A stretch of 64,000 bases of DNA. Origin: Octopus vulgaris (lineage: Eukaryota). A model generated the notes under the pieces. The model was given only the letters and a program-made list of their open reading frames with translations, was not told the DNA's origin and ran no database searches. Shown piece after piece: positions 539-31,904 of this stretch. The position numbers were made by a program, and so were the translations under genes. Each line of letters starts with the position of its first letter. Within the stretch, counting starts at the first letter, position 1. The DNA lies in assembly GCA_951406725.2 (NCBI GenBank), contig OX597822.1, positions 49,042,001 through 49,106,000 on the forward strand. The letters run 5' to 3'.

Positions 539-932
539 GTACCTGAGCATTGATTCTTGTGAAAATCTAGTTCAATCGGGCAGTAAGAGAAGTGTCTACG
601 AAGTTAGACATTCGAAAATCAAGGTTTTGTGATTAAAAGCCTATGTAAGCCATCAACTCCAAAATTCATCTCGTTAGGTGCTACAAGTGTGAGTCGACAC
701 AGAATTTTCTATGAAACAGTTTCCTAATTCACAACTGTCAAGTGCTGACCCTGAGCATACCCTAAGAAACCAATATAAAGTTAATTAGTGTAGCCTTACT
801 ACAGGAGAATTAACACAAATAACAATTTAAAGTATGATTCGAGTAAATGTAATGGTTTTAAATCGATTAGTCATAGAATAGTTTTGAAAATGTAGGCGCA
901 GGAGTGGCTGTGTGGTAAGTAGCTTGCTAACC

Positions 933-2907
933 TCTGACGTGTCCGGACCCGTTTTTTTTGGCTGCTCCAGTTGTCACGTATTTTAACGTGGATTGTTGAA
1001 CTTTTGACTCGACTACAGGTGGGCGTTTTGTATTTTTGGGAGCTTAGTGAAGTTTATTGCTTGCATTTAATGTTTTTTAGCATTTAATAATTTTTAGCAG
1101 GTAATAAACTCCACTTTGCTCCAAACAATTTTTCCTGCCTGTAGTCACTTTGTAGTGAGTATTGTGTTTTTTTGAGGAGGTGTAGCCCCACCTCAAAAAG
1201 TAACGTGTGTAATTGCCTTTGTCTTCGGAGTTACCAACGGAGTACCAAGAATATTAACACAAGTGGATTACCAGTGGCCTGGAATACCTTTTTGGCCGGG
1301 AAAAAAGAAACAAAAAATTAATTCCTTTGCCTGGATTTTGAACTCACTTCTGCTATCTTTTATTTAAAAAAATCCTTTTTGAACTGCTGTTTCGAATTTT
1401 GTTTCTTCCCTTCTGTTCTGTTTTTTATTCTCCTTTTTTTTGTCTATTTTATTTTTATCACGTTGAACTGTTTTTTGAACTTTCGTTATGGCAAAGGAGT
1501 TCACCATATGGGAGTTGACACCTCCCAAAAGTTATCTGAAAGATCTAGAGGACAAGACCGTGGTTTTGAGGACTTATTCAAAGTCGCTCAACACCATAGC
1601 TGTCTTTCCAAAGGCCACTATTATTAACGAGCTGGCAGGCTATATGCCAGCCGTTAAATACATCGCACGGGGAGTCAAATACGCAACGGTTTGGTTGCTG
1701 TTTGACTCCCCTAAAGCAGCTTGCGACTTTGCAAGCAAGCCCATTGAGGGCAAGGAGATATTGTTCCTCCCTAATTACAAGGGACAAAAATTGCTGAGAG
1801 CTTGGATCTGCGGCTTACCACCCGGCGTTGAACCCGAGTGGATAGAGGACTCTATCCGCCGGGGTCTGGGTGGTAGCAGCGCCAAGCTCCTAAACGTAAG
1901 AGTACAGCCTGCGGCTGATTGGGAGGGGTCAAAAGCTATTTTGACCCTATGGACCCAATCAGCCAAAAGTCTGGTTTTGCTGGACTTCTTGAGGATGGCC
2001 GGGTAAGGTATCTGGTGATGCTTGAGGGACGCCCCCTCCCCCCCCAAGTGTCACCTGTGCCTGGAGACCGGCCATATTAAGAAAAACTGCCCCAGGGACC
2101 AAAGTAGGATCCTGGAGCAGTTGATATCGGAGCCTCTCCCTGCTCCCCAATGGAGGGAGAGAAACAGAGCGAGGAAGCAACGACTTCCTCAACGAGAAAG
2201 AGAAAAGTGGGGAGCAATGGCAACCCACCAAAAGACCTGGAAGCTGCGGGAGAAGAAGAGAACCCGGTGTGTGCAACACCGAAACCTCAACCTCCCGCGG
2301 CCCAAGGTAAAAAGAAGAAAAGGAAGAGGAGAAACGGGACGCCGCCGGCGGATTGTGATACGCAGACGGCGTCTCCCAAGTCTTCTCAGGCGGGTGTGCC
2401 GCCCGAGGAACAACTTGTAGAACAATTTGTGGTCCTCTCTTTTAAAGGTGGAACAGTGGAAGGTGAGATGAGGAAAATGAGAAAGCGGGGCCATTGGGAG
2501 GGACTTCGATCCTGCACGGAGGACCCCGAGTGGCCTTCGCAGCTGGCTGCGGAGGTCATGGGGAGGGGTAATCTGGGCAGGGTCACGCATTCCTTCCCGA
2601 TGGACTCATTTCAAATTATACCTCTAGACCACGACCTGACCAGCGATGATTGCCTCGTTGAGGCAAGAGCGCTGGTCGGCCGGGTAACATAGACTCATTG
2701 AACATTATATTGTATTGAAAAAGAAAATTTGAAATTCTTGTGAAATTTAAAAAAAAAAAAAGGAACAATGTCTTAGAGAAGCGAGGGTCGGCGGGCGCTC
2801 TTGGCTTCTCCCATCACCATCTTCGTCCATCACCATCATTCATTAATGTTTATTGTCCAGCCCGCAGCTACTCTTTGTACTGCCCTAGTGGCAAATCTTA
2901 TGAAATA
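933..2907 (+). mobile_element. ORF1-only non-autonomous non-LTR retrotransposon (Tx1/L1-like), element 1
   Basis: 16-bp TSD aagtagcttgctaacc (917-932 / 2908-2923). T-rich 5' UTR, one frameshifted ORF1 with a CCHC knuckle, and a 3' UTR ending in a hairpin plus aataaa. No RT or endonuclease. Confidence 0.88.
1488..2692 (+). pseudogene. Gag-like ORF1 with CX2CX4HX4C zinc knuckle, frameshifted
   Basis: ORF pieces 1488-2006, 2022-2420 (CHLCLETGHIKKNC) and 2150-2692 are collinear with the homologous ORF starting at 26415. Confidence 0.8.
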
Positions 2908-29671: not shown

Positions 29672-31904
29672 GTAAGTTGCTTGCTTACCAACCACGTTGT
29701 TCTGGGTTCAGTCCCACTGCATGGCACTTTGTCTATTCTGCATTCTGTTTATTCTGCACATATTCCAGCAAGCTTTGGTTGGCACCAACATTTATTGATG
29801 CCGACATTATCGCTTTCATTAACTCCGATTTCTACCATATTCTACATTTTCTTGATATATTTCCAACAGGACCCTTTGAAGGAATTGAAAACATTCATTC
29901 AGGTTCAGACTTTGGGTGGTCCACACATGCACGTACACTCACACACATCCTTCCTTTCGACTAATCTACAGACATGATAGCTCATAGCTACCCTCTCCCT
30001 TTTGGAAAGCAAACTCTATCCTTTAGTTTTACACATATGAAGGGACAATTTATAATCCAGAACCTTATCACACCAGACTTACATTGACACTTCACTGTAT
30101 TTGAAAAGGGTTTTGCGACAATCACCAAATGAGGAATGTCAAAACATTTTTTCAGCAAAATACATACATACTTTAATCATTGGATTTCAGTCATGCTGGG
30201 GCGTCCCCTTTAATTGTTTTAGTCAATCATACTGATCTTAATGTGTATTTCAGTCGGGTGCTTATTTTATTAATTTCAATTTATCGCATACATGTCGATT
30301 TAAAAGGATGCAACTCGGTGCACCAATTTACACTAGTTTATACAAGCATAGACACCCAGATTCTGTCAACGAAATCCCGCTCACGAAGCATTGGTCAATC
30401 TAATGATACAGTAGAAGATACCTATCCTACGTCATGCACAACCGCAAGTCACGTGGTTCCGAAGCGAACTTCTCTGCCACAGTGTTGCGTCAACTAAAAT
30501 TTATAAATATAATTATAGAATAACAAAAAGTATTTATAATAATATAAAAATGTCAATATTTATTGACGTTGTAGTTGATGCAACTTATTTCTTTCAAAGA
30601 TATCTCACACATACAGCAGAACTGATTTATGGGTGAGATCATGTGAGTAATTAACAATCATATACATCGAAAAAAGAAAATAAATGGTTGTAACAAATGG
30701 TTGTACTAAAAACTGGTCTCGGTCCAAAATTTCTGGGCGCATGTAAAACAAGATAAATGTTCTTTTTTTAAAACATAATGCTTATTTTCTAAAAAATTCT
30801 TATCGAATAAAAATAATGTTAACCATTCCTGGCATTTTTTAATTCAAACGTCCAAGTAATTTTCATTCATCACATTTAGATTATCGTCATTAAAAATAAT
30901 AATCCTCATAGCAACAAATTACTATATCTCTCTCACACATACACACACACACACTCTCTCTCTCTCTCTCTCTCTCTCTCTCTCTCTCTCTCTCTATATA
31001 TATATATATATATATATATATATATATATATATATATATATATATGCTGTTCAGCAGAGCAAATAAAATTCTTTTCTTCTTCTTCCCTCTCCCTTCCCTC
31101 TTTTTCTTTAGCACTCATTCCAAATACAAAAGCACACACACACACACACACACACACACACACACACACACACATACACATGCTCTCTCTCTCACTTTCT
31201 CCTCATCCATCACCCTCTTGCACTATATTATATTCCTCCCCACCACTACAAACTCAATACCACTATAAAATGGTCAAAACTAAGTTCACACAGGAACTTA
31301 GTTTGATTTGAAAACCCCACTAGAATGGGAGAAAGCGCTAATACATGATCTAAGTTATATGATGTATAAAAAATGTAATATACAAATAAATATCTGTAAA
31401 TATAAAACCATCCGAATTTCTGAATACCTCATTTCTTCTAATATATATAAAATCACACACAGACGCACATACATGCACACGCGCAGCCACGCGCGCACGC
31501 ACGCACACATACGCACACACACACACACACACACACACACACACACACACACACACACACACACACACACACACACACACAAAAGTTATTTCATTCCACA
31601 CGGATGGAAAGAAATATAAAAAAATGAAGCTGAAAATGTACCAGTATTCTTTTAGATTCTTTTTAATTTTTAAACACTGAAACGGTTTCACGAACTTCTC
31701 TAATTTTCTGAAGTTCAAACAGAAAGATATTGCAACTATCTTGCCACTCAAAGCAGTTGCAGTATAGCTCCATATTTTTGAAAATCAGAGAAATTTGTGA
31801 AACCGGTTAAGTTTTTAAAATATAAAAATAAAAAATAACTAAACAAATCCCAGTGCACTTTCAATCTCTCTCTCTCTCTCTCTCTCTCTCTCTCTCTCTC
31901 TTAT

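Follow-up and report, generated by a model that had tools for sequence, protein, structure and literature searches.

Three insertions in two SINE copies

The window analysed here is a 64,000-nucleotide stretch of the Octopus vulgaris genome (GCA_951406725.2, contig OX597822.1, positions 49,042,001 to 49,106,000). It contains three insertions of about 1.8-2.0 kb each (elements 1 to 3), all on the forward strand, which entered short interspersed elements (SINEs) at the same point of the tRNA-like head, GGT|AAGTAGC. An earlier note, made from the sequence alone, had described them as retrotransposons of two families that carry only the first open reading frame (ORF1) and are specific for the SINE head, and had ascribed their movement to a Tx1-like endonuclease and reverse transcriptase (RT) acting in trans. 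On rereading of the sequence the three same-orientation inserts from two families are confirmed at the target, and the interpretation is supported overall.

Element 1 (933-2907) splits its SINE after base 22. The head upstream of the insertion point (895-916) includes the motif TGGCTGTGTGG, which we take to be an A box, and is followed by a 16-bp left duplicate, AAGTAGCTTGCTAACC (917-932), which in relatives is partly element-borne. The identical 16-mer on the right (2908-2923) opens the rest of the SINE, which extends to 3312, so that a perfect 16-mer stands on either side of the insertion. Element 1 is an ORF1-only element of the type lacking long terminal repeats (non-LTR), with a hairpin in its tail and the terminus GAAATA; its ORF1, at about 1488-2692, is broken by a stop and frameshifts near 2003-2050 and further on.

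Elements 2 and 3 form a tandem pair within one SINE, the second site in the window. The head of this SINE (25804-25825) and a left 15-mer with two mismatches (25826-25840) precede element 2 (25841-27870), an older subfamily of the element 1 lineage (69% DNA identity over ORF1 between the two) with a broken ORF1 from 26415 or just after. A 16-bp target copy (27871-27886) and a 15-nt target-like copy (27887-27901) come next, and the latter was likely brought in by element 3 itself, as in its relative L131. The body of element 3 is placed at 27902-29673 (27889-29671 in the earlier note) and ends with AATAAAGAAA. This element belongs to a separate ORF1-only lineage, has a broken ORF1 from about 28070, and is followed by a right target copy (29674-29689, the 16-mer with one mismatch) and a truncated SINE remnant to 29728.

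Each of the three broken ORF1s contains a single CCHC knuckle. A tblastn search with the ORF2 of the autonomous element described below gave no match in elements 1, 2 or 3 (E<=1), in line with the ORF1-only description. Allowing one mismatch, the window has 10 occurrences of the target 12-mer, against 0.30 expected. Uninterrupted SINE copies lie at 10251-10652 (reverse strand; used as the target reference), 37975-38371 (forward) and 63533-64000 (reverse, cut at the window end). The earlier note had taken them, at 10251-10652, 37975-38370 and 63535-64000, as empty sites showing the state before insertion; they are paralogous copies and not pre-insertion alleles. A 5'-truncated tail remnant of the element 1 and 2 lineage is found at 41736-41918 (forward), followed by AAGAAGCTTG-like sequence and no SINE.

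The head of the target SINE folds into a cloverleaf-like structure, in which ARAGORN reports a tRNA at a relaxed score of 80 and none at 85; Rfam gave no tRNA match for the head, and ARAGORN found 0 genes over the whole window. The repeat is presumably the octopus OK SINE, its identity to the published OK sequence being assumed.

An autonomous LINE at the same site

The 2.8-Gb genome was searched throughout, the best 40 candidates being scored in each DNA search. For the last 206 nt of element 1 there were 1,471 candidates; 40 of these were scored, and the 30 loci fetched include the window's own copy. All 30 run on into AAGTAGCT-like target, continued by the SINE body in 20 loci, by another element in nine and by AT-rich DNA in one. 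The possibility that most copies would have unrelated flanks, raised in the earlier note, is not borne out for the main lineage of the window.

Four of 30 loci obtained with the junction pattern contained the end of an L1-type ORF2, and extension of the four yielded a 5.45-kb element with two ORFs, namely the full-length long interspersed element (LINE) with an APE endonuclease, an RT and the same tail and flank that had been predicted. We refer to it as the helper and to the ORF1-only elements as riders. Pfam domains comprise zf-CCHC in ORF1 and Exo_endo_phos (APE), RVT_1 and zf-RVT in ORF2, and the best PDB match of ORF2 is human L1 ORF2p (E 8e-67; R2, 6e-20). In an unbiased search with the last 341 nt as query, 579 candidates were obtained, 40 scored and 30 fetched, and the target stands at the end of all 30. 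Exact copies of the last 31 nt number 105, and AAAGTAGC comes next in 98; the other seven include four SINE variants and one off-target copy, so that at least 102 of the 105 are at the target.

The 5' sides of 20 of the 30 helper loci were examined, and all 20 copies come within 30 nt of the 5' end, some with internal deletions or an inversion. Upstream lies the SINE head in 18 and another element in two. ORF2 is open over at least 1140 aa in five of the 20 copies and both ORFs are open in two, suggesting that the helper family is young and probably active. In contigs from four sequencing runs at one young helper locus, the joints bypassing the element match over 20-24 nt on each side and could derive from any empty SINE.

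Exact counts over the whole genome gave 53,949 uninterrupted 33-mers, i.e. perfect empty sites, along with 476 tail-plus-SINE 30-mers and 1,424 tail-plus-target 18-mers; the reversed-sequence control was 0 for each. Filled sites thus amount to about 1-3% of the perfect empty sites, and the SINE population is probably little affected.

Several features of the helper are those of Tx1 elements: an L1-group ORF2 with an N-terminal APE domain, an RT and a C-terminal zinc domain, and sequence-specific insertion with a duplication of about 15 bp. ORF1 proteins of the Tx1 clade combine RNA recognition motif (RRM) domains with a gag-like CCHC knuckle. The helper ORF1 has the zf-CCHC domain, tandem RRMs are predicted in the homologous rider ORF1, and Atlas look-alikes include RNA-binding domains of the ZCCHC3 type. 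None of the 11 homologues found, and no member of their clusters, is a named Tx1 protein, and the helper is best regarded as a putative Tx1-type LINE.

With the RT region as query, 111 places were scored and 20 of the more distant ones fetched. Two of them, 93% and about 80-84% identical to the helper (L208, L209), are at the SINE target. Twelve form a young family with 66-67% ORF2 identity (L191-L198, L203, L206, L207, L210), in which 11 copies end GAAATA|CTCTCT, i.e. in a (TC)n microsatellite, and one tail is interrupted. The remaining six, with 65% ORF2 identity and varied flanks, represent a third, variable-site family that forms self-tandem arrays (L199-L202, L204, L205; G000:C9:59.21-59.24 Mb); two of its loci, on different contigs, have the same 16-nt junction sequence. 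The terminus GAAATA is common to all three LINE families, which fixes the insertion point in the SINE at GGT|AAG. In a quick tree the SINE-targeting family is sister to the variable-site family (SH-aLRT 99), the outgroups being unnamed sequences that do not give the direction of the switch. In five loci whose only likeness to element 3 is its last 35 nt (L153-L157), a motif containing GATG comes next each time, which may reflect a further target preference.

Unbroken natural ORF1s of 394-414 aa occur in several rider subfamilies and are of the RRM-RRM-CCHC type. The predicted structure comprises two RRM-like domains, the knuckle, a linker that is disordered and, at low confidence, a C-terminal domain (mean predicted local distance difference test score 60, core 70-88). 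Between subfamilies the ratio of nonsynonymous to synonymous substitution rates (dN/dS) is 0.15-0.29 over the core from the RRMs to the knuckle, with dS up to 1.3, and 0.5-1.0 over the C-terminal part; between two copies of one subfamily the core value is 1.08. These are Nei-Gojobori estimates from seven unbroken copies, in which the pairs are not independent. As judged from them, the rider ORF1 has evolved under purifying selection. A profile of the ORF1 alignment matched one protein, an uncharacterised one of Octopus sinensis with 63% identity, among 7,999 scored candidates.

Riders and helpers also stand together in tandem arrays of mixed composition; one array contains eight elements or more. 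Long mixed arrays with several ORF1-only families are present at L184, L073 and L077 (G000:C7:13.46-13.48 Mb; C4:151.50 Mb), where 5' untranslated regions (UTRs) have apparently been exchanged between the families. On the reverse strand of L073, at about 5035-7530, a chimeric ORF1-bearing element of another family is nested in the ORF1 of an element-1-type copy, at a non-SINE site. The 5' UTRs open with CRE-, NRF1- and ETS-like motifs, suggestive of exchangeable internal RNA polymerase II (Pol II) promoters. In 19 extended loci of rider relatives, ORF2 occurs only where a helper copy adjoins.

Junctions, mechanism and rival explanations

The target site duplications had been given as 15-20 bp. 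Duplicates are present, and the left copy is a hybrid, the distal part of which follows the element and not the locus. All nine full-length helper loci with a TT-type right copy have a left copy ending TAACC, the usual start of the element, and variants of the left copy track the rider subfamilies. The common prefix of the left and right copies is 3-16 nt over 34 loci and reaches 16 only where target and element start agree by chance. Because the left copy is partly carried by the element, 15-20 bp overstates the length shown to derive from the locus. In two copies of a sister family at other sites the duplications measure 15-16 bp, and the true second nick may lie near 16 nt.

The helper and the riders of the element 1 and 2 lineage have only their last ~40 nt in common, including a 4-bp hairpin; for element 3 the likeness is weaker. 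In an alignment of 17 hand-chosen rows, one of them misplaced and uninformative, 96.8% of the cells of the hairpin are paired and six have changes on both sides, none of 500 shuffles scored as high and slid controls reached at most 54%, although a stem of four pairs is weak evidence taken alone. A 144-bp tandem repeat made from an element-3-like tail was found at L189:1735-5480.

The earlier note had also envisaged that SINE head and insert might be a single composite retroposon amplified from the SINE promoter. The highly uniform 5' and 3' junctions, and a left duplicate partly inherited with the element, would agree with such a unit. However, in 28 helper loci with the SINE body next, the last 355 nt of the helper are 99.8% alike while the following 120 nt of SINE are 91.1% alike and split between two SINE subfamilies, so that the insertions are separate. 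The SINE heads upstream of the nick site and the outer flanks also vary from locus to locus, and the same site is occupied by unrelated families. Copies with 5' truncations retain a full head, and their duplications measure 0, 7, 10, about 13 and about 14 bp; in one of them (L017) both sides have the same private substitution. We rejected the composite model on the mismatch between body and flank divergence, the two subfamilies and the differing heads, and regard it as most improbable. At L058:1170-1620, a short helper-like tail insert is surrounded by an apparent SINE duplication of about 100 bp that shares private variants.

In our view a young LINE of the L1/Tx1 type and ORF1-only elements use one site in the SINE head, where the LINE endonuclease nicks and the RT copies the ORF1-only RNAs in trans; we hold this to be very probable. 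All elements terminate GAAATA right before AAGTAGC, between the A- and B-box-like motifs. The APE domain would nick the bottom strand at GGT|AAG and reverse transcription would be primed there, with a second nick up to about 16 nt downstream. The shared ~40-nt tail with its hairpin is a likely signal for recognition by ORF2p. If the RNA starts inside the upstream duplicate, the end of the cDNA could anneal to the overhang of the target, a step that would account for the precise, mostly full-length 5' ends. The riders may retain their own ORF1p for packaging their own RNA in cis. The target survives insertion, and mixed tandem arrays therefore accumulate.

Several observations weigh against this reading or narrow it. 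Target specificity is strict for the young families only, and relaxed or missing in those that are old or distant: in the older element 2 subfamily the SINE target is found in 14 of 25 fetched loci, the rest comprising six that begin AAG(T/A) without a SINE, four unrelated flanks and one tail-less copy. Among 30 loci sharing the element 3 tail, five are at the target (close relatives reaching the end, including the window's own), two are broken pieces and 23 are distant, have only part of the tail in common and are located elsewhere. Scoring only the best 40 candidates favours young copies. The rider ORF1 is 24-29% identical to that of the helper, no closer to it than to those of the sister LINEs, and branches outside helper and sisters in a quick unrooted tree. 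The riders are thus old and not simple or recent deletion derivatives of the helper, and could have used another helper in the past. APE nicking, trans-mobilisation, the transcription start, loss of the SINE promoter and the Tx1 and OK labels are points that we infer from sequence.

The deep ORF1 divergence leads to the proposal that the riders were moved by a different, unseen or extinct helper, several Tx1-like lineages having targeted the SINE over time. Older autonomous relatives at the same target (L208, L209, L055) fit this proposal, as does the tail of element 3, which is nearer to those of the (TC)n and variable-site sister LINEs than to that of the helper. Yet the tails of elements 1 and 2 match the last ~40 nt of the helper, and single arrays contain copies of riders and helper interspersed with one another. 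As a general explanation a different helper seems rather unlikely; for old copies and element 3 it likely holds, and it is compatible with trans-mobilisation by the present LINE. Less probable still is targeting without a specific nuclease, in which read-through RNA with SINE sequence anneals to the target, or factors of RNA polymerase III (Pol III) tether a lax nuclease at SINE heads. In its favour, tail length hardly varies at the 3' junctions, the insertion point falls between the A- and B-box-like motifs, and protein-tethered targeting is known for TRE5-A (PMC3706591). However, tethered elements land at a distance according to the same account, whereas insertion here is base-precise; AAGTA still often starts the non-SINE flanks; sister LINEs with 65-67% ORF2 identity, which likewise end in GAAATA, insert at (TC)n or varied sites; and insertion also occurs where another element, and not the SINE body, follows the target. 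Read-through may nevertheless add precision.

Comparison with known systems

The targets listed for Tx1 elements include DNA transposons (Mariner, Harbinger), LTR elements, U2, U5 and 5S genes, satellites and microsatellites (Kojima 2015, PMC4494074). In crocodilians SINEU rides Tx1-Mar into a Mariner element, with 16-bp duplications and tandem arrays (PMC4494074). In the octopus, as in that system, a LINE and a non-autonomous rider prefer one site in a high-copy transposon and form tandem insertions separated by target duplications. In contrast to the Mariner DNA transposon and the non-coding SINE rider of crocodilians, the target here is a SINE head and the riders code for a selected ORF1. 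The octopus elements are also comparable with Tx1L (Xenopus, into Tx1D), Kibi/Koshi, Keno, Mutsu and Dewa, which are sequence-specific APE-type LINEs (cited in PMC4494074 and PMC3706591), and the (TC)n sister family resembles Kibi of fish in its microsatellite target. Unlike here, however, the targets compared for those elements include no SINE; the Tx1 label of the octopus LINE derives from sequence features.

HAL1 (half-L1) is a non-autonomous element that encodes only ORF1p and arose more than once (PMC5753468). The octopus riders similarly consist of ORF1 without endonuclease or RT, and have a 3' tail in common with an autonomous partner. Unlike HAL1, a derivative of mammalian L1, they have an RRM-RRM-CCHC ORF1 that is too distant from the helper's, at the identity given above, for an origin by deletion. 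They work like HAL1 and are not members of it in the strict sense; we know of no sequence-specific site for HAL1. In R2, upstream target sequence in the RNA guides the 5' junction, the nuclease is of the restriction-like type (RLE), the target is rDNA and an HDV ribozyme is present. The octopus element RNA likely also carries upstream target sequence for a precise 5' junction; unlike in R2, no ribozyme was found by Rfam at the 5' ends of a rider and the helper, where there were only microsatellite-driven miRNA matches below threshold. Cotranscription has been noted in this context (PMC4494074). Dada elements target multicopy tRNA genes at fixed positions in or at the A box, with duplications of 6-7 bp (PMC3706591); unlike the octopus elements they are DNA transposons inserting into real tRNA and snRNA genes, and the word SINE is absent from the main text of that paper. 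A 2026 annotation of octopus repeats reports 421 recent L1-Tx1 insertions, and the word target is absent from its main text (PMC13282606). The comparison also took in PMC4758252, PMC4824008, PMC5035012 and PMC9004415.

The arrangement had been put forward as undescribed. Full-text literature searches turned up no LINE that targets a SINE, Repbase Reports, Dfam and most subscription papers lying outside the search, so that an entry may exist; a Tx1 LINE with a non-autonomous rider on another transposon is already published (PMC4494074). The octopus system is real, genome-wide and mechanistically coherent, and represents a further variant among the target-specific Tx1-like systems, not a separate category. 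We are evenly divided on a bolder reading, in which no retrotransposon system specialised on a SINE has been described before this one. In that reading the LINE would still be active, its endonuclease would have changed from microsatellites or lax sites to the region of the Pol III promoter in another retroposon, an own target copy at the 5' end would seal full-length insertions, each entered SINE would be disabled, and the LINE would support an ancient guild of ORF1-only riders with functional ORF1p.

The SINE head would add a target class for sequence-specific LINEs, one retroposon living on another in a three-tier parasitism of SINE, LINE and riders, and would let the elements multiply at little cost to genes. 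The long-standing purifying selection on the ORF1 of elements that lack RT provides evidence for ORF1p acting in cis on its own RNA. Three young sister LINEs with ORF2 65-67% identical and differing targets make the change in APE specificity testable by domain swaps, and base-precise, mostly full-length insertion into about 54,000 dispensable sites is relevant to the mechanism of retrotransposition and to research tools for cephalopods.

Two further features of the window may be mentioned. Another abundant family of short repeats is present at 4264-7087, 14984-15237, 42728-42878, 53016-53439 and 54549-54776; it has no relation to the target SINE, and in the window these elements do not interrupt it. 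An ORF2 fragment of a related LINE, with 55% identity to the helper, is located at 16292-16666 (forward).

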